Below are positions 1 to 39,708 of a stretch of 39,708 nt of DNA, piece by piece. Made by a program: the position numbers and the translations under genes. Origin of the DNA: a virus; IMG/VR virus record IMGVR_UViG_3300045988_140580; one strand, given 5' to 3'. How positions within the stretch are numbered: position 1 is the first letter of the stretch; each line of letters begins with the position of its first letter. The notes beneath the pieces were generated by a model. It was not told the origin of the DNA. It did not search any database and saw only the letters and a program-made list of their open reading frames with translations.

Positions 1-81
1 ATCACCGTCGTCTTTGGCACATCCATTGCGACCATCTTCGGCGTATTCCTCATTCCGATTCTGTTCATCATCGTAGAAAAT
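1..81. repeat. Left copy of 81-bp terminal direct repeat (identical to 39628-39708). Candidate phage DTR, circular-assembly overlap, or att core.
   Basis: Exact identity of 1-81 with 39628-39708, read directly. The repeat has a higher GC content and a C-ending codon bias unlike the phage genes, and it is open in + frame 1, where it encodes a hydrophobic helix. Confidence 0.9.
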
Positions 82-180
82 ATCGGACACAGAGGGAAAC
101 CCTTTAGTAAGGTAAAGGAATCTGACGGTTGACCGCTGGACTCAGGAGCACAATAAGCAACTTATAAGCACTTTTGTCTC

Positions 181-1263
181 TCACGGGTAACTCCATGTTA
201 CTCGGTTGTCTGTGGAGTGTGTGTAGTATTTCAGAGTAGTTTCTATACTACTGTGACCCATCAGTTTGCTTACTCTCATAACGTCTACATGTTTCTCAGT
301 TATGAGTAGGGTAGCAAAAGTATGTCTCATGTCGTACAGGTGGTGTCCTCTACCCAGTACGGCATGGGTATACTTTTTGAATCGCATATTTACATTATCG
401 ACACTCATATAACCATACTGGCTCTTGAAGGAATAGAAGATATTATCCTTTGGGAGCCTTTTTATATTACTTACTAACCACTTACCATACTGCTCTTTGT
501 CTATCGGTACTATCCTATAACTGCTATCCTGTGTCTTCATCCCATCCTGTAGTTTTCCTCTGAATCCCAGGGATTTGTTGAAGTTCACATAGTTTTCCGT
601 AACATCTTCCTTGGTAAGCGCGAGTATTTCCTGTGGTCGTGCCCCAGTTATCATACCGATTACTATGTATATTTGGTAGACTAGGGGAAGCTTAGTAGAC
701 AAAGTTTTTTTATCTAGCAGCTTACTGACTTCCTCACTGGAGAATGTACGTATGTGTCTTTTGGGTTTACCCTTGATGGTCCTTATGGCACCTCTGCTTG
801 TCATTGGATTATTATCAAGGTATCCCTCGTATACCGCGGTTTCCAGTATAGCTTTGAAGTTCTTTCTCCATCTTGACAGGGTAGAAGTAGCGTAGCCATG
901 GGAAGCCAGACCTAGGAAATACCTATTGATATCCTGTGTAGTCAGATCATAAAACTTTGTCTTAGCTAACTTACTGCCTACTACATGTTTGTTATAGAAA
1001 TGCTTGATACCATTTAAGGTAGACTCACGATACACATTTTCCTTCAGTTCTATGAAGTGTTCCCAATATTCCTCTATGGTAGTAGGGGTGAAGTACTTTA
1101 TGTTTGTTCCTCGTACCTTATCAAAAAACTGCTCAACTTCCTGTCGGGTATCACACGTTTTACTAACTCGCTTACCATTACCGATGCATATAGCACCTTT
1201 GAATTTTCCATTTGGTGTCCTTGTTATAGAACCAGTACCTTTTTCTCTTCTTATTCTTTTCAT
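181..1263 (-). CDS. int: Tyrosine recombinase / phage integrase
   Basis: 360-aa ORF. The C-terminal catalytic region reads HDMRHTFATLL...LMGHSSIETTLKYYTH (R..HxxR..Y tyrosine recombinase motifs), and ARPQEILAL supplies the box A arginine. An RBS GAAAGGTGA lies upstream on the minus strand. It is the only large gene on the minus strand. Confidence 0.93.
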   Translation of the reverse strand: MKRIRREKGTGSITRTPNGKFKGAICIGNGKRVSKTCDTRQEVEQFFDKVRGTNIKYFTPTTIEEYWEHFIELKENVYRESTLNGIKHFYNKHVVGSKLAKTKFYDLTTQDINRYFLGLASHGYATSTLSRWRKNFKAILETAVYEGYLDNNPMTSRGAIRTIKGKPKRHIRTFSSEEVSKLLDKKTLSTKLPLVYQIYIVIGMITGARPQEILALTKEDVTENYVNFNKSLGFRGKLQDGMKTQDSSYRIVPIDKEQYGKWLVSNIKRLPKDNIFYSFKSQYGYMSVDNVNMRFKKYTHAVLGRGHHLYDMRHTFATLLITEKHVDVMRVSKLMGHSSIETTLKYYTHSTDNRVTWSYP

Positions 1264-1479
1264 ATATCACCTTTCTTCCCTAGATACTTTTAGTTGTTCC
1301 CTCTATGGGTAGGATAGCATAAGGGGACACAGTATTCCAGATGAAAATTGGAGAAAAATTTGTGATACTAGATTGATTGAGATCTCCTCAGATTTTCCCC
1401 CGTGTACCCCCTGGACAACAATATAAAATAAAATAAACTTAATTATATACTATTATATGTCTGAACAGAAACACATAAG

Positions 1480-1525
1480 GTCTCACGGTATCCCTGATAA
1501 TATCAAGGTTTACACGGTATCCAGT
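1480..1525. repeat. Direct repeat of CACGGTATCC(C/A)(T/G)TG at about 30-bp spacing (candidate protein-binding sites near int)
   Basis: tctCACGGTATCCctg at about 1480 and tttaCACGGTATCCagtg at about 1510. Confidence 0.4.
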
Positions 1526-1722
1526 GTCTATCTATTGCTTTTATTTATGATACACACGGAGCCGTTGTATTGATGTTATCAGTTTTTTTAATTAGTTGAA
1601 TGAGTCAACTATATGGATACTCAAGGATATATGATGGAAACATTAAGATATATGAACGAATGTTCATGTGATATTAAAAATTGCTCTATAAAATATCTGT
1701 CTATATACATTAGAAATACTTA

Positions 1723-1875
1723 TCACGTACATCAGAAATATTTATAAGATACATCAATGTTACTTATAATATACATTGGAAATACTTATAACATACATAT
1801 TCCAGGCATGGAGTATACTTATGACAGACACAGGAAATACGTATGATAGACACAGAATATGTTGGGATACATGGC
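1723..1875. repeat. Iteron-like array: about 7 imperfect tandem copies of a 22-bp unit GAAATACTTATNANNTACATCA
   Basis: Units begin at about 1723, 1745, 1767, 1789, 1811, 1834 and 1855, for example GAAATACTTATCACGTACATCA, GAAATATTTATAAGATACATCA, GAAATACTTATAACATACATAT and GGAAATACGTATGATAGACACA. The array is AT-rich and non-coding, and lies between int and the repressor module. Confidence 0.7.
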
Positions 1876-1944
1876 TTATGGTCTATAGCATATTGCTATT
1901 AATCTAAGCATCGAAAGAAGATAAAGCATTAACTAATTTTCTTA

Positions 1945-2337
1945 TTACTGTTTTGAGCGTATATACATAAAAGTACCAATAAGTAATATGATTCCGATAA
2001 TGATATTAAGAGATAATAAATAAGCTGTTTCATTTTTTAATTTATTAACTTCAGATTCTAATTGTTTTATTTTGTTATAATTTTGCGTTATTGTTTTTCC
2101 CTGTGCTTCATTTATTAATACTGTTTCAGATAAAACCTCATCAATACGCTCATTTGGCTGTAATGTTTGGGGATCTATATGCGGTTGAAAATTTCTATAT
2201 TTATCATTATACCACTGAACAAATGCATTATGTGTACCTCGGTCCCATGTATCATTTTTCCAGTCGTAGGCCATTATTTCCATAACAGAGACAAAGAGTA
2301 AACATAAAGAAATTATAATTTTGAAGAATATCTTCAT
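1945..2337 (-). CDS. Secreted/membrane protein (N-terminal signal peptide or TM, coiled coil, C-terminal TM). Candidate lysogenic-conversion or superinfection-exclusion protein.
   Basis: The ORF track gives 1945..2382 from a TTG start. The more plausible start is ATG 2337 (MKIFFKIIISLCLLFVSVMEIMA), preceded by GAGGTG. The C-terminal hydrophobic segment is LLSLNIIIGIILLIGTFMYI. It is co-oriented with the repressor and int. Confidence 0.5.
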   Translation of the reverse strand: MKIFFKIIISLCLLFVSVMEIMAYDWKNDTWDRGTHNAFVQWYNDKYRNFQPHIDPQTLQPNERIDEVLSETVLINEAQGKTITQNYNKIKQLESEVNKLKNETAYLLSLNIIIGIILLIGTFMYIRSKQ

Positions 2338-2434
2338 TTTATACACCTCAATTATATGTAAATTATAAGAATAGTATAGCAAAATATAGGTATCCTTAGA
2401 ATACTTTTGTATTCTTTAGATACCCATATTTTAG

Positions 2435-2611
2435 TTATTGCTTTTTATTTTCAGTTATTAGAATATTTTCATTATCATTAACATATTTTGTAATATGTCG
2501 TGTTAAATATCCGCTTACAGTGTCGCCTTTTATTTTTAGTATTTTTTGAAATTTGTTTTTTAGTTCACTATCTATTCTTATTTGCATGAACTTTTCTTTT
2601 GTGTCTTTCAT
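2435..2611 (-). CDS. Small ribbon-helix-helix (Arc/Mnt/CopG-like) DNA-binding protein, 58 aa. Candidate lysogeny repressor. Not in ORF track (under 60 aa).
   Basis: Hand translation of the minus strand gives MKDTKEKFMQIRIDSELKNKFQKILKIKGDTVSGYLTRHITKYVNDNENILITENKKQ*. The pattern is a beta-strand (FMQIRIDSEL) with alternating hydrophobics, helix A, a G-D-T-V-S-G loop (the G-x-S/T-x-S RHH hallmark) and helix B. An RBS AGAAGGGAAG lies 9 nt upstream. It is divergent from the early operon, with operators between them. Confidence 0.6.
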   Translation of the reverse strand: MKDTKEKFMQIRIDSELKNKFQKILKIKGDTVSGYLTRHITKYVNDNENILITENKKQ

Positions 2612-2637
2612 ATAATATCACTTCCCTTCTAATATTC

Positions 2638-2665
2638 ATTATAGCAGGTTTTTTAAGTTGTGACA
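2638..2665 (-). promoter_or_regulatory. Sigma70-like promoter for the RHH gene (minus strand): -35 TTGTCA (2665..2660), 16-nt spacer, -10 TATAAT (2643..2638)
   Basis: Read on the reverse complement. The -35 overlaps the operator half-site at 2660-2676. Confidence 0.45.
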
Positions 2666-2676
2666 ATGTAGTAAAA
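2660..2676. promoter_or_regulatory. Operator-like site O1 (half-conserved): TGTGACAATGTAGTAAA
   Basis: Shares CAATGTAGTAA with O2 and O3. Overlaps the -35 of the leftward promoter. Confidence 0.45.
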
Positions 2677-2692
2677 AAAAACAAATTAGGTA

Positions 2693-2721
2693 TTGACTTT
2701 GTCACTACATTGTAGTAATAT
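2693..2721 (+). promoter_or_regulatory. Sigma70-like early promoter: -35 TTGACT (2693-2698), 16-17-nt spacer, -10 TAATAT/AATATA (2715-2721)
   Basis: Near-consensus hexamers read directly. Operator O2 lies inside the spacer. The promoter is upstream of the first early gene (ATG 2822). Confidence 0.6.
2700..2717. promoter_or_regulatory. Operator O2: GTCACTACATTGTAGTAA (perfect 6+1+6 palindrome ACTACA-T-TGTAGT)
   Basis: Palindrome read directly. Located in the spacer of the early promoter. Confidence 0.6.
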
Positions 2722-2780
2722 ATACTCAACGAAAGGGAACATATCAAAATATAAAGTTCCCAAAAATTTTTAACTTCTTA

Positions 2781-2797
2781 TGTCACTACAATGTAGT
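2781..2797. promoter_or_regulatory. Operator O3: GTCACTACAATGTAGTA (palindrome ACTACA-A-TGTAGT) in the early-transcript leader
   Basis: Second perfect copy of the O2 palindrome, about 25 nt upstream of the first early gene's RBS. Confidence 0.55.
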
Positions 2798-2821
2798 ACA
2801 ATCAAGAAAGGAAGGGTAAAC

Positions 2822-3193
2822 ATGGAAGAAGTAACAAAGGAAATGATAATGGACGCTTTGACTGATTATGTTTCTGAATTGTCTGAAGAAGACACAATTA
2901 CACTATGGAATGCCTATTGTGAAGACTACAACCAGATGCACCGATTCATTTATCTAAATGATTTTGACGAACTCGACAGCGTTTTTAAGTCACCTTCAGA
3001 AGCTTTGTATATGGCACAGTATTCACCGTATCACATCAACGACAGATATTTTACTTACAGTTCTTTTTGTGGGCTTATGTCTTTCAGTTTTCTTACAGAT
3101 GAAAATAGTCCGGTAGTAGTTGATGAATTAGTTAGCTACCTGATGAGTCAAAGAGCTGTATATATTTTAGTAAAAAGTCAGTTAGAAAGGTAG
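2822..3193 (+). CDS. Early protein, strongly acidic (about 22 D/E vs 7 K/R in 124 aa). Candidate DNA-mimic / anti-restriction protein (by composition only).
   Basis: ATG 2822 with RBS AAAGGAAGGG; the ORF-track start at 2780 is less likely. It is the first gene of the host-transcribed operon, the position of T7 gene 0.3 (Ocr). Confidence 0.6.
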   Translation: MEEVTKEMIMDALTDYVSELSEEDTITLWNAYCEDYNQMHRFIYLNDFDELDSVFKSPSEALYMAQYSPYHINDRYFTYSSFCGLMSFSFLTDENSPVVVDELVSYLMSQRAVYILVKSQLER

Positions 3194-3202
3194 GTAATTA
3201 CT

Positions 3203-3418
3203 ATGACACAGAGAATCACGGAAAAATTTTTAGATAACATGATTAAAAACATCAATAACAGAACTGGCAGAAAGTACTTCTTAGAATATGCATACGGTGG
3301 GGTAAAACTGGCGCATACATACGAAAACGGCGGATACACAGATGAAAGTTATAGAATGACAAAACGAGAAATGTATTATGTCCTAGATGCTTTACAGCAC
3401 TTCATCAATCACAATTAG
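3203..3418 (+). CDS. Hypothetical early protein (71 aa)
   Basis: ORF with RBS GAAAGGTAGG. No recognisable motif. Confidence 0.5.
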   Translation: MTQRITEKFLDNMIKNINNRTGRKYFLEYAYGGVKLAHTYENGGYTDESYRMTKREMYYVLDALQHFINHN

Positions 3419-3426
3419 TGGATTTT

Positions 3427-3480
3427 ACAGGGTGCCTTAGAAAACTAAGGCACTCGATAAAGGCCACTAGAAGCCTTTAG
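3427..3480 (+). other. Conserved intergenic RNA element, copy A: two stem-loops (GUGCCUUAG-AAAA-CUAAGGCAC; AAAGGC-CACUAGAA-GCCUUU)
   Basis: Paralogous to 4177-4230, with compensatory base changes that preserve both stems. Confidence 0.6.
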
Positions 3481-3507
3481 GCAGTTAGGTAGAAAGGAAG
3501 TAATATC

Positions 3508-3963
3508 ATGACAAGAATTAGCCTGTATCACGTAGAGTTAGTAAAAGATAGCAGCCATAACTATAACGTCTCAAGAGATATGTCTAGCCCGTATAATGTC
3601 ATTCATATGCTTGTAAATACATTGCATCTGGACAAACGCAACGTAGAAAATTTTGGCATGATTGCAGTTAATACGCAAAACAAATTAATAGCTGTACAGA
3701 TTTTAACGCAAGGATCTATCGATACATCTATAGCAAGTACTAGAGAAGTCTTTCAATGCGCTTTACTGCATAATGCACGTGCCATAATACTATTCCATAA
3801 TCATCCTTCCGGGAATTCTGGTCCTTCTAAAGAAGATATAGCAATAACTAAAAGGATAGTTAAAGCTGGGGAACTACTAGGTATTCCGGTATTGGACCAT
3901 GTGATTATAGGTAGTGAGAACGATTACTTTAGCATGAGAAGTGAGGGAATTATCAATGACTAA
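3508..3963 (+). CDS. RadC-like JAB/MPN-domain protein (DUF2466 family)
   Basis: Motif ILFHNHPSGNSGPSKEDIAITKRI matches the RadC-like HNHPSG...PS.xDxxxT signature. 151 aa. Confidence 0.85.
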   Translation: MTRISLYHVELVKDSSHNYNVSRDMSSPYNVIHMLVNTLHLDKRNVENFGMIAVNTQNKLIAVQILTQGSIDTSIASTREVFQCALLHNARAIILFHNHPSGNSGPSKEDIAITKRIVKAGELLGIPVLDHVIIGSENDYFSMRSEGIIND

Positions 3964-4180
3964 CAAAGAATTAGCAAGAAAAATATACGATACGGGGCGT
4001 AATGAAACAACTACAGGAAACTGGGTTTTTCACATAAGTGAGTTAGATGGCAGGACGCCAGAAGAAGGTATGTATATCCTGTTAGATGAGTATAGAGAAG
4101 ACATTTTAGACATAACGTGTACAGATACAGAACTGGATATCATTTTCGCATTAGCTGTTTGTCCTTATTTTCAAGAGTGA
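3956..4180 (+). CDS. Hypothetical early protein (74 aa)
   Basis: ATG 3956 preceded by GAGGGAA. It overlaps the end of the RadC-like gene. Confidence 0.5.
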   Translation: MTNKELARKIYDTGRNETTTGNWVFHISELDGRTPEEGMYILLDEYREDILDITCTDTELDIIFALAVCPYFQE

Positions 4181-4230
4181 ATTTAACAGAGTACCTTAGA
4201 TAACTAAGGTATTCGATTAAGTCCACTAGT
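4177..4230 (+). other. Conserved intergenic RNA element, copy B: GUACCUUAG-AUAA-CUAAGGUA(U); UAAGUC-CACUAGU-GACUUA
   Basis: Same architecture as copy A. The loop CACUAG is conserved while the stems co-vary. Confidence 0.6.
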
Positions 4231-4264
4231 GACTTATCACATGTAACCAGAAAGGATGATACAT

Positions 4265-4846
4265 ATGTTAGCACAGGAAATTTTAAAAGTATTAGCACTC
4301 GATATGACTGAAAAAGAAAAAGTAGAAAAAATCCAAAAACTATGCACCGATGATATTTATGTACACACATGTAGCAAGCCTGTAGGCAATCGGTTTAAAT
4401 TCATACAGAAAGAGTGTAAGAAGGCTAAAAGACCTTGCTTAACAAAGGTACACAGATCGGAAAAATATGGCCTAGTCTGGACCGATGCTTATGTATTGTG
4501 CACGTTTAGAGATGATACATTTCCTACTGATTTATTAGCAACAGAAAAGGAAAAACTAAATGTAGACAATGTTTTAAAGAGTGTAGGTAATGATAAAGCC
4601 AATGCAAGTGTTGAATACAAGGACGTAAAAGCACGGCTTGCTTGTCTATCGACGAAAAAAGAAAAAGAAGCGGACATAATCGAAATAGGGGATTCAATTT
4701 TCAAGACTTGCTTAGTTGACAAAGTTTTCAAATTTTATGGCCTGGACAAACTGAATTTACATACAAAAAATAGCTGTGTTGCATACGGTTATACAGAAAA
4801 TGGTGATGCATTCTTAATTTGTCCGATGAAAAAGGAAGTTAAATAG
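4265..4846 (+). CDS. Hypothetical early protein (193 aa), Cys/Lys-rich, no recognised motif
   Basis: ATG 4265 with RBS AGAAAGGA at correct spacing; the track start at 4256 is too close to the RBS. It is the last gene before the terminator hairpin. Confidence 0.55.
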   Translation: MLAQEILKVLALDMTEKEKVEKIQKLCTDDIYVHTCSKPVGNRFKFIQKECKKAKRPCLTKVHRSEKYGLVWTDAYVLCTFRDDTFPTDLLATEKEKLNVDNVLKSVGNDKANASVEYKDVKARLACLSTKKEKEADIIEIGDSIFKTCLVDKVFKFYGLDKLNLHTKNSCVAYGYTENGDAFLICPMKKEVK

Positions 4847-4951
4847 ATATGAGTACAAAAGAGAAGATAGAAGGATATGCATACTACATCATACTTTGTC
4901 TCTTGTGCATGTTGTGTGAATACCTAGATAAAAACTTAATATAGTTAAGCT

Positions 4952-5005
4952 AAAAATAGCGTGTACTTAGAAATTTTTAAGTCACTCTAAGTACACGCTA
5001 TTTTT
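4952..5005 (+). terminator. Perfect 19-bp inverted repeat (AAAAATAGCGTGTACTTAG ... CTAAGTACACGCTATTTTT) with a 16-nt loop, followed by a T-run. Intrinsic terminator and/or RNase III-type site.
   Basis: Arms at 4952-4970 and 4987-5005 read directly. Located between the early genes and the RNAP gene. Confidence 0.75.
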
Positions 5006-5035
5006 ATATATAAATGCATGAACAAACGTTCTGTT

Positions 5036-5058
5036 AATTGTCCCACTATTAAGAGAAA
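5036..5058 (+). promoter_or_regulatory. Phage-RNAP promoter P1 (variant): ATTGTCCCACTATTAAGAGAAAT, followed by a degenerate copy ATTTGTCCCTTATTTAGAAAGG
   Basis: Member of a 4-copy family sharing ATTGTCCCACTAT(T/C)AAGAGA. Immediately upstream of the RNAP start codon. Confidence 0.6.
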
Positions 5059-5095
5059 TATAATTTGTCCCTTATTTAGAAAGGTGGTTAAAAAT

Positions 5096-7636
5096 ATGTA
5101 TACGCTGGAACAACAATTGGAAGTTGAAAAAATGTATAAGACAGTAGCGGAAGATTCCTTTTTTTCAAAATTGAATCAAGACAAGCAAGAAGGTAACTAT
5201 TCTAGAAGTTCCATAGGTAAAGGAATTATAAAGCAGGTTATGGCACCTTTTACAAAAAACATACACATAAAACTACAGGAAGTCACACTGAGTAAAAAAG
5301 GAGTAAAACCTAAATATTATGCAGTTCTCAAAAAATTCATGGATTACTATATAAACGACATGGATACTTTTGTTAATACATTAGCATTACAAACAATAAA
5401 GGTAGTAGTAAACAACATTGCTACCAATAGAAAAAACTGCAATATGATAGCTAGTGTTATAGGTACAGAACTACAAGATGAAGTAGAATTATATGCCTTT
5501 ATGCATACTGTCGAACATGCAGAAACAAGATATAGTAAAGACATAAATAAACGTGTAGGGAGGAGTTTCAAGAAGAATTTTATCTTACATGCATATCAAG
5601 GGAATGATTTTGTATTTCCTAAATTCAAAAAAACGGAGCTTACAGCTTTAGGCATGGAAATGATAGCTATACTTACAGAATCAGTAGACTTTTTCTACAT
5701 AGCTATGACAGGCGAAAAAGGTTTATTGGAGTTACATCCTAGTGATATGTTTTTACAAGCTGTCATAAAGTCGGAAGAAAACATTATGTCTAGGACGGTT
5801 AAATTAGTACCAACTATAATACCTCCTAAAGCATGGAAAGGAATATTTGAAGGAGGGTATTATGGGGCGTTAGGTATCCAAAATAGATTTATGCGTCATC
5901 ATCCCTATATGAAAGGCACAAAAACATTAAGTAGATACCTGGCACGGCTTAATGAATTAGACCTAACACCTATTTACAGAGCAGTTAATAGGATCCAGAA
6001 CACTGCCTATCATATCAATAGTTATATGCTCGATGTAGTAGGTTCTATATTAGAAAGCGGTGGAAATAGGGCAGGTATACCCCAGATGAAACCATATGAA
6101 AAACTTCCGGCTTTTCCGTATGGAGACAAAGAGATAGAAGAGTCTGAGGAATTGCAAGTGCTATTTAAAGAACATAAGAAGAAAATGATAACCATGATAC
6201 ATAAAGAAAACCAGAGACAAGGCAAGGCGCTAAGGTGCACCATGGTGTACAAATTAGCTAAAGATTTTAGCAGATTTGAGACAATATACTTCCCAATGAA
6301 TATTGATTTTCGAGGGCGTATATATCCCATTCCTACGGGTCTTAATCCACAGGGGGATGATATGACAAAAGGTTTACTGGAATATGCTTTTCCTAAAGCT
6401 GTGTCTAGTGAAGATTCCTTGCAATGGCTTATGATTCACGGTGCAGGGTTAGCAGGGCACGATAAAATTTGTCTGGATGAACGTGTACAATGGGTACAGG
6501 ATAACAAAGATAACATTGTAAATAGTGTCGATAATCCCATAGGGTACACATGGTGGCAAGAGCAGGATAAACCTTTCCAGTTCCTAGCGTGGTGCAGGGA
6601 ATACGTCAATGCCTTAGCTTATATGTTTGCACACAATGGCTCTTTAATAGGGTTCGAGTGTCATTGTGTAATAGCATATGACGGTACCTGCTCTGGACTT
6701 CAGCATTACTCTGCATTACTGAGAGATCCTGTTGGTGGCAGTGCGGTAAATCTGGTGGACCATGATAAGCCTAGTGATATTTATCAGGAAGTAGCAAATA
6801 AAGTTCTGATATCAGTAGAGAATGATTCTCATAATGGCACTATAGAAGATACAGACAGAAAAGGAAATAAGATACCTGGTACAAAAGCAATAGCGGAAGC
6901 ATGGCTTGCACATGGTATCACACGGAAAGTTTGTAAACGCCCTGTAATGACACTAGCCTATGGATCTGGGCAATATGGTTTTGGGGACCAGATTTTTGAA
7001 GATACGACAAAAGACAATCCCTTCTTTAATGGTGTAGGTGACTTCAGGGCAGCTAGATATATGGCTAGTAAGGTATGGGAGACTGTACAGACAACTGTAG
7101 TTTCTGCTACACAGGGCATGTCTTTTCTTAAGGAGTTAGCTAATGAGTTAGCGTCTGATAATATGCCTGTAGAATGGATTACACCGTTGGGATTGCCTGT
7201 ACAACAGATGTATCTTGATTTACATACGGAATGCTTCAGGTTACGGTTTGGTGGTGCCAGTGTGCGCTATCGTATATATGTTACAGAGCCGAAGGAAGGG
7301 GAAGACACAGACAAAAAGAAGCAGGTGTCTGGTGTTGCTCCTAACTTCATTCACTCCCTAGATGCTACTCACTTGATGATGTCTGTTAATGCTTGTGAGA
7401 ATGTGTCTAACTTCACTACGGTCCATGATTCATTTGGTACGTCATTAGGTGAAGCAGAGGAGCTGAGAGAAGTTATTAGACAGCAAATGGTTAAATTGTA
7501 TAGTGAAAATGAGCCACTAAAAGATTTTAAAGCTCATGCTGAAGAATTGCTAGGCAAACATATTGATATAGATTTACCCCGAAAAGGCACATTAGATATC
7601 AATTCTATTTTGTCTAGCAAATTTGTGTTTCACTAA
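5096..7636 (+). CDS. T7-like single-subunit DNA-dependent RNA polymerase
   Basis: The 846-aa protein has TTVHDSFGT (T7 RNAP motif C HDSFGT) and a palm/fingers region similar to T7 gene 1. The start is ATG 5096 after AAAGGTGG; the track's upstream ATG 5018 would place promoter P1 inside the gene. Confidence 0.95.
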   Translation: MYTLEQQLEVEKMYKTVAEDSFFSKLNQDKQEGNYSRSSIGKGIIKQVMAPFTKNIHIKLQEVTLSKKGVKPKYYAVLKKFMDYYINDMDTFVNTLALQTIKVVVNNIATNRKNCNMIASVIGTELQDEVELYAFMHTVEHAETRYSKDINKRVGRSFKKNFILHAYQGNDFVFPKFKKTELTALGMEMIAILTESVDFFYIAMTGEKGLLELHPSDMFLQAVIKSEENIMSRTVKLVPTIIPPKAWKGIFEGGYYGALGIQNRFMRHHPYMKGTKTLSRYLARLNELDLTPIYRAVNRIQNTAYHINSYMLDVVGSILESGGNRAGIPQMKPYEKLPAFPYGDKEIEESEELQVLFKEHKKKMITMIHKENQRQGKALRCTMVYKLAKDFSRFETIYFPMNIDFRGRIYPIPTGLNPQGDDMTKGLLEYAFPKAVSSEDSLQWLMIHGAGLAGHDKICLDERVQWVQDNKDNIVNSVDNPIGYTWWQEQDKPFQFLAWCREYVNALAYMFAHNGSLIGFECHCVIAYDGTCSGLQHYSALLRDPVGGSAVNLVDHDKPSDIYQEVANKVLISVENDSHNGTIEDTDRKGNKIPGTKAIAEAWLAHGITRKVCKRPVMTLAYGSGQYGFGDQIFEDTTKDNPFFNGVGDFRAARYMASKVWETVQTTVVSATQGMSFLKELANELASDNMPVEWITPLGLPVQQMYLDLHTECFRLRFGGASVRYRIYVTEPKEGEDTDKKKQVSGVAPNFIHSLDATHLMMSVNACENVSNFTTVHDSFGTSLGEAEELREVIRQQMVKLYSENEPLKDFKAHAEELLGKHIDIDLPRKGTLDINSILSSKFVFH

Positions 7637-34840: not shown

Positions 34841-35044
34841 ATGAAAAACTATATTATTCGTATGCAGGATGAACGTGCGAAATTAGAAACTAAATGGGAC
34901 AAACTTATTAAATATGTGAGCGAGCATTATGATAACCTTGATGGAACAGAAATATACTTGATGCAACAGCAAATTAAGTGTATGGAAAAATATATCATGT
35001 TTCTTAACGCTCGTATTGATCATGCTAAACTCAAAGAAAAGTAA
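34841..35044 (+). CDS. Hypothetical small protein (67 aa)
   Basis: RBS AGGAGAATGA. No TM segment. Confidence 0.45.
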   Translation: MKNYIIRMQDERAKLETKWDKLIKYVSEHYDNLDGTEIYLMQQQIKCMEKYIMFLNARIDHAKLKEK

Positions 35045-36369: not shown

Positions 36370-36558
36370 ATGTACAAGAACCTACGCAAGCAACTTTGCA
36401 AAGAGATTAATAAAATGGATGACCATATGTTTATCCTTCATTTAGCTTGCTTGGATATGATAGATACAGAAATTGTTGATAAAATTATTGATTTTAAAAG
36501 ATTAAAAGACGAAGCAGATAAGATTGAGAAAAACTTAGAAAAAAGGAGTAGGGAATGA
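36370..36558 (+). CDS. Hypothetical small protein (62 aa)
   Basis: ORF between the endolysin and the spanin-like genes. Confidence 0.4.
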   Translation: MYKNLRKQLCKEINKMDDHMFILHLACLDMIDTEIVDKIIDFKRLKDEADKIEKNLEKRSRE

Positions 36559-36953
36559 ATGAAGATAAAATCAAATATGCTGAAAAGATCGTTGCTGTCT
36601 GCATTATTGGTTGTCTCGCTATCTTCTGTCTCTTTTGCGTCTACAACTACCTATCCGCAGACAAATCAGCAGACGATCACAATGACACTATCACAATACA
36701 ACGAATTGAAGATGAACATAGACAGCTTGGAGATGAACTTGCAGATATTAGAACAGAACTCCAGTACGGACAAGAAGCAGTTAATAGAGCTGAGGAACGA
36801 GTTGGAGACCTGCAAGAGTCAAATGCTGTTAGCGCAGAAAAGCTCAGAGAAAGCAGAGAACTTATTGAAAGAAGTAGAAACATCTTTAAAGACGTTGACA
36901 GAGCAAATGGACTCCCTGAAGCACAAACTGGCAGTGAAGGAACGACAAAATAA
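36555..36953 (+). CDS. i-spanin-like protein (N-terminal TM plus charged coiled-coil periplasmic domain)
   Basis: TM segment IVAVCIIGCLAIFCLFCVYNYL followed by an E/R-rich helical region. Position after the lysozyme. Confidence 0.5.
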   Translation: MNEDKIKYAEKIVAVCIIGCLAIFCLFCVYNYLSADKSADDHNDTITIQRIEDEHRQLGDELADIRTELQYGQEAVNRAEERVGDLQESNAVSAEKLRESRELIERSRNIFKDVDRANGLPEAQTGSEGTTK

Positions 36954-37005
36954 ACTGGCGTGGTCTGTTGCAGGTGGTCTTCTGATTGGTCTGGTTGCGA
37001 AATAA
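36577..37005 (+). CDS. Embedded alternative-frame ORF: signal peptide, coiled coil and C-terminal TM (o-spanin or u-spanin-like), fully overlapping the i-spanin-like gene
   Basis: MLKRSLLSALLVVSLSSVSFAST signal-like N-terminus and a C-terminal LAWSVAGGLLIGLVAK. It forms a 140+ codon open frame inside another gene in AT-rich DNA. No lipobox Cys is seen. Confidence 0.4.
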   Translation: MLKRSLLSALLVVSLSSVSFASTTTYPQTNQQTITMTLSQYNELKMNIDSLEMNLQILEQNSSTDKKQLIELRNELETCKSQMLLAQKSSEKAENLLKEVETSLKTLTEQMDSLKHKLAVKERQNKLAWSVAGGLLIGLVAK

Positions 37006-39357: not shown

Positions 39358-39380
39358 TATTGTCCCACATATAGGAAAGT
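39358..39380 (+). promoter_or_regulatory. Promoter half-site variant TTATTGTCCCACATATAGGAAAG, in tandem 28 bp upstream of P4
   Basis: Same arrangement as 7721-7743. Confidence 0.4.
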
Positions 39381-39384
39381 CGCT

Positions 39385-39418
39385 TATTGTCCCACTATTA
39401 AGAGAGAGAAGGGAAGAC
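39385..39418 (+). promoter_or_regulatory. Phage-RNAP promoter P4: TTATTGTCCCACTATTAAGAGAGAGAAGGGAAGAC (right-end promoter, like T7 phiOR)
   Basis: Full family member downstream of the terminase gene. Confidence 0.7.
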
Positions 39419-39627
39419 AAAGGAAAACTAAAGTATCTAAGGAACTCTAATTATACTAAGTATACATATGTACTCAGTTAGCTGTCCTTTAGCGCACTGA
39501 AGTATTCCTGTATCCTTCAGTATCCCTAAAGTATCAAACACTATATCCCATATCGGATAGACAAGGAATAAGCAACTAACAGCTAAACACTTACCACTAA
39601 TTACACACTCATAGGAAGCCTATGGGC

Positions 39628-39708
39628 ATCACCGTCGTCTTTGGCACATCCATTGCGACCATCTTCGGCGTATTCCTCATTCCGATTCTGTTCATCATCG
39701 TAGAAAAT
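39628..39708. repeat. Right copy of the 81-bp terminal direct repeat
   Basis: Identical to 1-81. Confidence 0.9.

Follow-up and report, generated by a model that had tools for sequence, protein, structure and literature searches.

Organization of the left end of the genome

The stretch of DNA analyzed in this study (IMG/VR virus record IMGVR_UViG_3300045988_140580; 39,708 nucleotides, referred to throughout as the window) carries at its left end a minus-strand cassette (positions 181-2611) that comprises an integrase gene (int), a 22-bp repeat array in the spacer upstream of int, a gene for a small membrane protein and a gene for a 58-amino acid ribbon-helix-helix (RHH) protein. In an initial annotation of this DNA these were described as four contiguous elements of a lysogeny cassette, and the corresponding open reading frames (ORFs) are indeed present where it had placed them. 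The cassette was also said to be opposed to an otherwise unidirectional T7-like gene set, in agreement with which all plausible genes between 2822 and 39335 were found to lie on the plus strand; GC skew is negative over the first 3 kb and positive across the rest of the window.

The T7 hallmark domains recognized in the plus-strand gene set are RNA_pol, Helic-prim_T7_N, Phage_endo_I, T7_gp14, Phage_T7_tail, DNA_Packaging_2 and Terminase-T7. The single-subunit RNA polymerase (RNAP) was identified by PF00940 (2.7e-105), and the tail fibre, small terminase, T7 primase-helicase, endonuclease I and gp14 domains all belong to plus-strand genes. The T7-like gene set, 39.6 kb in all, is intact, and none of its ORFs is disrupted. 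Thus a T7-type single-subunit RNAP, a T7 gene order and an integrase, the gene content expected of a temperate T7-like phage, are all present, and the integrated state, the second mark of such a phage, is seen at the host junctions described below. A blastn comparison of positions 1-5000 with 50,697 phage records yielded zero matches, and hence no close sequenced relative among isolates; identity to proteins of the GenBank phage set does not exceed 35% for the RNAP and 27.5% for the integrase. Our literature search returned no paper describing T7-like prophages from Negativicutes or Megasphaera. On the evidence presented below, region 181-2611 very probably constitutes a functional module for lysogeny, belonging to a temperate T7-like podophage whose host is Megasphaera (Negativicutes, human gut).

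Integration into the 3' end of a host RND efflux gene

An identical integrase was found in a 194-kb metagenome contig (L001), where it converges on a gene for a 1048-amino acid ACR_tran protein (a resistance-nodulation-division, RND, pump); beyond this gene lie MFP, TetR, thiamine, FtsY and SMC host genes. At the right phage end of the same contig (L008, reached by an endolysin look-up), the terminase gene is followed by NAD synthase, MurJ and TrkAH host genes. The spacing between the two host junctions is 39,707 bp, which matches the window length and indicates that the window is the exact att-to-att interval. The same junction was encountered, in one scan of a genome collection, in the isolate Megasphaera sp. 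AM44-1BH (L018; Negativicutes, family Veillonellaceae), with an integrase 98% identical to that of the window and host flanks that match those of L001 at 98.6% identity. The claim of the initial annotation that this podophage can lysogenise is thus borne out by integrated copies with full-length integrases; neither of the outcomes that it had listed as speaking against this, a lack of integrated copies in any host genome and an int pseudogene in relatives, was encountered.

All four forms expected of site-specific recombination (attB, attP, attL and attR) were recovered, and they have in common a core of 96-97 bp. The left junction, attL, was found at four loci (L001, L002, L006 and L018) and the right junction, attR, at five (L008, L009, L010, L015 and L017). 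An attP junction is present in a 2.3-kb contig (L007) in the order int, core, phage-specific arm and terminase end. An empty attB site was recovered with a DNA pattern from the host (left) side of attL in a 282-kb contig (L028), the flanks of which are 99.1% identical to those of the lysogen; in this contig the RND gene reads through the core to its native tail, and then into the sequence that flanks attR in L008. The attB core in L028 is 96 bp long and contains two single-nucleotide polymorphisms (SNPs); one SNP at the edge of the core had kept a first, attB-spanning pattern from matching anything in the metagenome collection.

The 97-bp core is identical across attP, attL and attR, and corresponds to window positions 39620-39708 continued by 82-89. 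The right copy (39620-39708, plus strand) therefore contains the first 89 of the 97 bp, and the left copy (1-89, plus strand) the last 89. Integrated copies flanked by the exact 81-bp terminal repeat of the window (1-81, identical to 39628-39708) had been predicted in the initial annotation; the copies were found, but the repeat proved to belong to the longer att core, of which it is the centre, where both copies overlap, 8 bp short on each side. One could also regard this repeat as a T7-type direct terminal repeat of the virion, in which case the cassette would occupy the physical left terminus of the genome, as T7-like phages have repeats of a similar size and the promoters at 39360 and 39387 (see below) recall T7 phiOR. 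The repeated sequence, however, is the coding 3' end of a host RND gene, host identity runs 8 bp past the repeat on both sides, and this is the very pattern expected when an assembler breaks at a 97-bp repeat common to attL, attR, attP and attB; a virion terminal repeat is accordingly viewed as most improbable.

The left core copy duplicates the 3'-terminal part of the RND efflux permease gene and encodes the last transmembrane helix of the protein, ...ITVVFGTSIATIFGVFLIPILFIIVENIGH. It is followed by a substitute 3' end supplied by the phage (82-132, plus strand), which encodes ...IGHRGKPFSKVKESDG and terminates at the stop codon 130-132; positions 1-132, read in frame, yield ITVVFGTSIATIFGVFLIPILFIIVENIGHRGKPFSKVKESDG and the stop. 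Upon insertion the native RND tail, ...IG(H/R)RSKKKPQGVQRIQDV, becomes the phage-encoded ...IGHRGKPFSKVKESDG, so that approximately the last 14 residues of the pump are exchanged for 12 residues encoded by the phage. Since attP carries both a copy of the last helix and the substitute 12-residue tail, insertion leaves the pump gene open. Equivalent substitute tails were found in L018, L025, L027 and L031, and a diverged copy of the RND tail lies beside int in L025, L027, L031 and L033, the integrases of which are 60-65% identical to that of the window, indicating that the target gene is conserved across the clade. One of these relatives, L027, is a circularly permuted contig with the order int, attP, terminase. 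A tRNA scan of the window detected zero tRNA genes, and attP is therefore not tRNA-based. At the other end of the window, host identity ends at 39620, and a phage-specific attP arm (39407-39619) separates the core from the two rightmost phage promoters.

These loci show that the phage integrates into the 3' end of the RND gene. The integrase recombines the 97-bp attP core with the near-identical attB located at the end of the efflux-permease gene, and the int cassette then lies beside attL and the terminase beside attR.

Two additional features of the junctions were observed. The substitute tails are conserved in type, GH(R/S)xK(P/S)F(S/N)x(V/M/L)K..., among phages with diverged cores, which suggests selection for keeping the pump gene intact. 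In the attL core of AM44-1BH, all four substitutions fall within the leftmost ~55 bp, and the remainder is the same as in the other phage copies; this distribution would put the point of strand exchange in the rightmost ~40 bp.

The integrase and the capacity for cycling

The 360-amino acid tyrosine integrase (181-1263, minus strand) was identified by Pfam PF00589 (Phage_integrase; 59 bits, cut-off 27.1), which covers the C-terminal catalytic domain, and by PHROG_1 (2e-51); a SAM-like N-terminal domain was recognized as well. Its nearest phage relatives are integrases of Streptococcus and Lactobacillus prophages. The closest solved structure, at a low level of similarity, is that of the Tn1549 integrase (PDB 6EN0/6EMZ; E = 6e-8), and alignment to 6EN0 yielded the catalytic pattern R-K-Y-R-H-Y. 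The "complete catalytic motifs" of the initial annotation thus need a qualification: R, K, R, H and Y align with the residues of Tn1549 Int, but a Tyr occupies the place of the first His of HxxR, which reads Y-D-M-R (YDMRH). Integrase activity is nonetheless implied by the recovered att products, and the protein is full length in every relative, at 60-98% identity. While Tn1549 Int tolerates heterologous targets, the integrase described here uses a 97-bp homologous core.

The Tyr replacing the catalytic His is one of several points that weigh against a functional module and in favor of a cryptic or defective prophage remnant, or of a lytic phage with a relic integrase, either of which would have no cycle of integrated and free forms. 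No excisionase was recognized among the early proteins in Pfam and PHROG scans; the evidence consists of sequence, most of it metagenomic; and the attP junction of L007 could equally derive from a tandem double lysogen. Contigs of unit length (39-40 kb; L003, L005 and L013) were not counted as proof of free phage, since the repeated core is a point of contig breakage and such contigs may be assembly artefacts. Against a remnant stand the intact 39.6-kb gene set, the joint recovery of attL, attR, the attP junction and an empty site in a 99.1%-identical host, the assembly of one relative as a permuted circle, and the conservation of integrase, repressor and att target down to 60% identity. The remnant explanation is consequently considered very unlikely, and the phage is almost certainly an integrating temperate phage.

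A putative repressor and its operators

The 58-amino acid RHH protein (gene at 2435-2611, minus strand) is a putative prophage repressor, for which the family, profile and structure matches are weak. It matched the PHROG "Arc-like repressor" at 3e-4, a profile search returned the RelB DNA-binding domain 2K29 (E = 0.003), and the best Foldseek matches are nearly all RHH proteins: CopA(SO), Arc, ParG, PutA and CopG. The model of the monomer has an extended N-terminus and helices at residues 15-28 and 32-47 (pLDDT 66.5). Three of the scores count against this assignment: the match to Pfam RelB (E = 0.004, 17.4 bits) is below the cut-off of 22.4, that to NCBIfam RelB_DinJ (18.1 bits, cut-off 45.65) does not reach curated RHH membership, and the Foldseek E-values are weak (at least 0.17). 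A word-indexed homologue search returned near-identical sequences only.

A sigma70-like promoter directed at the RHH gene (2638-2666, minus strand; TTGTCA, 17-nt spacer, TG-TATAAT) agrees with the consensus at 11 of 12 positions and is the best consensus match within the first 5.1 kb. Divergent from it, upstream of the plus-strand early genes, lies a sigma70-like early promoter (2693-2721, plus strand; TTGACT, 17-nt spacer, TAATAT). A 15-bp palindrome, CACTACA(A/T)TGTAGTA (CACTACAWTGTAGTA), is present in exact form at only two places in the 39.7 kb. The first of these putative operators, O2 (2703-2717; CACTACATTGTAGTA), occupies the early-promoter spacer and the start of the -10 element; the second, O3 (2784-2798; CACTACAATGTAGTA), lies 81 bp further downstream, in the leader that precedes the first early gene (2822-3193) and ahead of its ribosome-binding site. 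A partial operator, O1 (2659-2673), the right half and centre of which (ACAATGTAGTA) equal those of O3, overlaps the -35 element of the RHH promoter. Palindromic operators are what one would look for next to an RHH repressor, and here two exact 15-bp copies occur, at the early promoter only.

This layout is kept in nine IMG/VR relatives and in several metagenome loci, and it is here that the assignment of the RHH gene as repressor, already proposed in the initial annotation, finds its main support. In relatives with integrases 97-98% identical and the early protein gp196 ~98% identical to those of the window, the RHH alleles are only 31-35% identical; each RHH allele is accompanied by a different palindrome, always located within the spacer of the equivalent TTGACA early promoter (ACATGTGAGAACATGT in L018-L020; AATGTAGCTACAT in L026 and L027). 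In L023 and L031-L034 the repressor slot is filled by an XRE helix-turn-helix protein, and the L023 operator, ACAACCAAATGGATGT, is present in four copies. The repressor type and the operator palindrome thus co-vary across the relatives, and such a joint exchange of repressor and operator on a constant backbone is the signature of a phage immunity region. With this co-variation added to the family matches, we regard the RHH protein as probably being the prophage repressor.

According to the proposed scheme, the 58-amino acid RHH protein would be the immunity repressor, expressed from a sigma70-type promoter of its own. Binding of its dimers or tetramers to O2 and O3 would shut off transcription of the early operon by the host RNAP, and the O1 half-site over its own -35 element may provide autoregulation.

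Proposed gating of the phage RNA polymerase

The host-transcribed early operon appears to end at a probable terminator (4951-5006, plus strand), a perfect hairpin with a 21-bp stem followed by TTTTTA, located before the RNAP gene (5096-7636). Between the two, directly upstream of the RNAP gene, lies a T7-type phage promoter (5036-5057, plus strand; TTAATTGTCCCACTATTAAGAGA). The promoter motif, TTGTCCCAC(T/A)..., was found six times on the plus strand, as compared to ~1.1 expected on both strands. The succession of a terminator hairpin with a T-run, a phage promoter and the RNAP gene was observed in every relative, with RNAPs 52-86% identical; the stem sequences vary by clade and the layout is kept, including in L018-L027. 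Because the terminator is situated ahead of the RNAP gene, early transcription by the host RNAP should largely stop before reaching it. Once the first RNAP molecules were made, the RNAP gene would be self-amplified from its own phage promoter. As the later genes need the phage RNAP, and this is encoded behind the terminator, a block of the early promoter would silence the whole genome; we infer that repression of this single promoter may be enough to keep the prophage silent.

Several other features of the early region and of the phage promoters were observed. The early gene at 3508-3963 encodes a RadC-like JAB-domain protein (PF04002, 2.3e-40), the alleles of which in close relatives are either 99% or only ~58% identical, marking a mosaic point of the early region. 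A strong hairpin between two early genes (3413-3472), to which a spurious Rfam match to mir-124 was obtained, may act as an attenuator within the early operon. The two rightmost phage promoters, at 39360 and 39387 (39360-39406), are arranged in tandem after the terminase gene and directed into attP. On circular phage DNA, transcription from them would run antisense across int and the lysogeny cassette, and in the prophage form they face host DNA, towards the NAD-synthase gene.

LexA-box-like palindromes and a possible route of induction

The RHH protein does not have a cleavable domain, and no antirepressor was recognized. Only two palindromes of the form GAAC-N4-GTTC are present in the window, one in the spacer upstream of int (1654-1665; GAACGAATGTTC) and one between the early terminator and the phage promoter of the RNAP gene (5020-5031; GAACAAACGTTC). 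We take this pattern to be the LexA operator of Firmicutes, which may not be that of Megasphaera. Both occurrences are in regulatory non-coding DNA, and 0.35 were expected in the window; against a role in induction, the count alone is not significant, as 5 of 100 shuffled sequences also reached two.

The distribution of the boxes in the relatives was also inspected. The box before the RNAP promoter is found in L018, L019, L021, L031 and L032 as well. In L023, L025, L026 and L027 the -10 element of a sigma70-like promoter lies between one exact box and one near-match (GAAC-N4-GTTT), and downstream of this promoter are a ribosome-binding site and a start codon; in L029 the early region contains two boxes, 40 nt apart and ~650 nt ahead of the RNAP gene. 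Of the nine boxes in non-coding DNA, eight agree, as read by eye, with the RNRY centre of the fuller consensus CGAACRNRYGTTYC as well. These observations are suggestive of SOS control through the host LexA, a speculative proposal in which induction would act at the boxes before the RNAP promoter and upstream of int. Combined with the RHH repressor, the terminator and the self-amplifying RNAP, the LexA boxes could complete a minimal bistable circuit, coupled to the SOS response without a cleavable repressor.

The membrane-protein gene between repressor and integrase

The gene at 1945-2337 (minus strand) is a "moron" that encodes a membrane protein of 130 amino acids from its MKIFF start, as judged by hydrophobicity, the AlphaFold model and the relatives; a 145-amino acid, TTG-extended ORF was not chosen by the gene callers. 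Hydrophobic stretches cover residues 1-24 and 105-124, and the model (mean pLDDT 79.7) contains helices at residues 2-21 and 38-47 and one long helix at 61-129. The predicted topology, an N-terminal signal-like helix, a C-terminal transmembrane segment and a basic tail, agrees with the signal peptide and C-terminal transmembrane segment noted initially. A small conserved domain, YDWxxDxWDR...NAFVxWYN...ERIDEV, is also present.

Directly after the RHH stop codon lies a probable intrinsic terminator (2381-2432, minus strand), a hairpin with 24-nt arms and a U-run; the folding energy of the region between the two genes is -30.7 kcal/mol (RNAfold). It is followed by an extended -10-like element for the membrane-protein gene (2372-2380, minus strand; TGCTATACT), as read from the DNA. 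In all relatives a hairpin and T-run directly after the repressor gene are likewise followed by a TGnTATAAT-like extended -10 and then by the gene that fills this slot. With a terminator before it and an extended -10 of its own, the membrane-protein gene would constitute an independent transcription unit.

An exhaustive HMMER search of 1.84 billion representative sequences revealed only three homologues (P0004-P0006), 40-45% identical and of the same architecture. A fourth candidate, P0007, was rejected as a spurious match to an ankyrin-repeat protein, and a word-indexed search found near-identical copies only. P0004 and P0005 lie between the repressor (RHH in L029, XRE in L031-L034) and the integrase, and an RNA_pol gene is located on the same contig as the homologue in L029 and L032. 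In other relatives the slot is occupied by unrelated proteins, either tail-anchored and 61-83 amino acids long (GIDKAVxNSxP) or 149-155 amino acids long with a signal peptide. Searches of Pfam, PHROG and PADLOC with these slot proteins produced nothing usable.

An RHH gene followed by a gene for a small membrane protein may also be thought of as a toxin-antitoxin or abortive-infection pair, composed of a RelB-like antitoxin and a membrane toxin: the two genes are adjacent and co-oriented, and the best family matches of the RHH protein are to the DNA-binding domains of RelB/DinJ antitoxins. Yet the RHH protein is only 49-58 amino acids long, without a toxin-binding extension; the two genes are set apart by a terminator and by a promoter for the second gene; relatives carry unrelated proteins in the downstream position but retain an RHH or XRE protein with matching operators at the early promoter; and the cleavable-looking signal peptide and periplasmic bulk of the downstream protein are unlike known small membrane toxins. 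The pair is thus very improbable as a toxin-antitoxin system, and a repressor gene followed by an independent accessory gene is preferred.

The accessory gene lies inside the module, between int and the repressor gene, and has its own expression signals, as is typical of exclusion-type genes. The protein would be expressed from the prophage and held in the inner membrane by its anchor, most of it facing the periplasm. An exclusion or conversion role was suggested in the initial annotation; by analogy, and from position and topology, superinfection exclusion directed against incoming related phages is the most likely, though still tentative, function; the lack of a match to any known exclusion or defence family in Pfam, PHROG and PADLOC speaks against this function. 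The family formed by this protein and P0004-P0006, confined to the slot between repressor and int in this clade, could represent a new type of exclusion protein, which would block the trans-envelope ejection channel of incoming T7-like phages at the periplasmic face of the inner membrane of a diderm Firmicute host. Such ejection-channel exclusion and the SOS-coupled bistable switch proposed above are the most far-reaching readings and are considered rather unlikely.

The spacer upstream of int

Between the integrase and membrane-protein genes there are 680 bases of non-coding DNA. A degenerate tandem array (1691-1870) of ~7 AT-rich units with a period of 22 bp, the consensus GAAATACTTATAACATACATCA and one 11-bp insertion lies downstream of the membrane-protein gene and upstream of a conserved int-proximal block. 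The lag-22 autocorrelation of 0.66 is the maximum of the window and was reached in none of 5000 shuffled sequences. This array had been labelled "iterons"; the AT-rich 22-bp repeat is real, but the label of replication iterons is not supported. Direct tandem repeats of 17-22 bp are a property of iterons, and strict 22-bp phasing (two helical turns) in AT-rich DNA may equally bring to mind a plasmid-type maintenance site or integrase arm-type sites. Family scans, however, revealed no Rep-like initiator and no partition gene, and the replication genes are T7-type, including a primase-helicase and a DNA polymerase. Nor is the array conserved in related replicons: among near-identical phages its copy number decreases from the window to L019 to L018, L021 and L022 lack it and have other DNA in its place, and more distant clades have different short repeats.

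The possibility of integrase arm-type sites was raised by an apparent enrichment of AAGTAT-like words in the attP arm, and was rejected when a weight matrix of the repeat unit yielded no high-scoring site in either arm; the array is also ~1.6 kb away from the core. An iteron, maintenance or arm-site role is therefore improbable, and it is very doubtful that the array is an iteron set in particular. We consider it a lineage-specific repeat of variable copy number in the int spacer, and at most a cis-regulatory or DNA-bending element.

The remainder of the spacer, upstream of int (1264-1690, minus strand), contains the LexA-box-like palindrome described above and a G-rich motif, GGGGGTACACGGGGGAA (1395-1413, minus strand), ~130 nt upstream of int. 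The motif is conserved in all clades compared (the window, L022, L023, L025, L027, L029 and L031), and the DNA around it is otherwise AT-rich and divergent. Three small plus-strand ORFs in the spacer (1457-1573, 1613-1747 and 1776-1907) were rejected as genes, as they are interrupted by 22- and 38-bp indels between close relatives. An Rfam search of positions 1-5100 yielded only spurious hairpin matches (mir-124 and mir-728) and no known RNA family in the 680-bp spacer.

Relation to known temperate phages

Temperate T7-like phages are established: Agrobacterium phage Pasto, Pelagibacter HTVC019P, Pseudomonas LUZ100, a P. putida KT2440 prophage and cyanophage P-SSP7 are listed in the summary given in PMC10134795 (citing Boeckman 2022 and Zhao 2019), according to which integration is documented for Pasto and HTVC019P. 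In LUZ100 the integrase is actively transcribed and a phage-specific promoter lies directly upstream of the RNAP gene (PMC10134795). The same summary describes, for the temperate T7-likes it covers, a MarR-like regulator co-transcribed with int and, in some, a tRNA-Leu beside int (PMC10134795).

The present phage has in common with them the T7 chassis (single-subunit RNAP, primase-helicase, gp14-16-like core proteins and T7 terminase) and a tyrosine integrase near the RNAP end, and with LUZ100 an RNAP gene with its own phage promoter. It differs in having an RHH regulator (XRE in some relatives) that is divergent from the early genes, whereas theirs is MarR-like; no MarR-like regulator was found beside int in the family searches, and the RHH protein holds the regulator slot. 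It differs further in the membrane-protein gene between repressor and int, in an attB located at the 3' terminus of a gene for an RND pump, and in its host, a Negativicute, while theirs are Proteobacteria or Cyanobacteria. As temperate T7-like phages are already known and the individual parts are ordinary, the combination represents a new lineage and not a new kind of phage.

Other parts of the cassette have parallels elsewhere. In TP-J34 of Streptococcus thermophilus, ltp, located in the leftward lysogeny module, encodes a membrane-tethered exclusion protein expressed from the prophage (PMC3952083), and the rapidly changing envelope-protein gene of the present clade parallels it in position. 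As in that phage, an example of the lysogeny modules of Firmicutes siphophages, int, an accessory membrane-protein gene and the repressor gene are here leftward and all other genes rightward; unlike there, a minimal RHH repressor takes the place of a CI-like helix-turn-helix protein, and the module is set on a T7-like, RNAP-driven genome. In sequence the membrane protein resembles neither Ltp nor Sie2009, and it is no lipoprotein. The RHH protein is like P22 Arc and Mnt and the CopG/RelB-type proteins in its length of ~50 amino acids, its predicted strand-helix-helix arrangement and its short putative palindromic operators overlapping promoters. Unlike Arc and Mnt, which control the antirepressor region and are not the primary maintenance repressors, it occupies the position of cI, and the sequence similarity is marginal. 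Insertion at the 3' end of a coding gene, with a replacement 3' end carried by the element, is known from phage 21 and e14 in icd. Here too attP duplicates the end of the target gene and the gene remains intact; the target, in this case, is an AcrB-type RND permease.

The four att forms and the isolate lysogen make this a well-documented case of T7-like phages not always being strictly lytic. It extends temperate T7-likes to the Negativicutes of the human gut, with a bearing on safety assumptions in phage therapy and on the reading of gut viromes. Interchangeable immunity cassettes on near-identical genomes constitute a natural set of small orthogonal repressor-operator pairs, and a new RNAP-promoter pair is available from the clade. 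The swapped C-terminal tail of the RND pump could affect host physiology, and the variable membrane-protein slot is a place in which to seek new exclusion mechanisms.

Lysis region

Two observations were made outside of the regions discussed above. A 67-amino acid protein that matches Pfam "Sequestin" is encoded just before the holin (34841-35044). After the endolysin, two overlapping ORFs in different frames (36555-37005; 132 and 148 amino acids) resemble an embedded-spanin arrangement, as expected for a phage of a diderm host, the 148-amino acid product having a predicted signal peptide and a C-terminal transmembrane segment.

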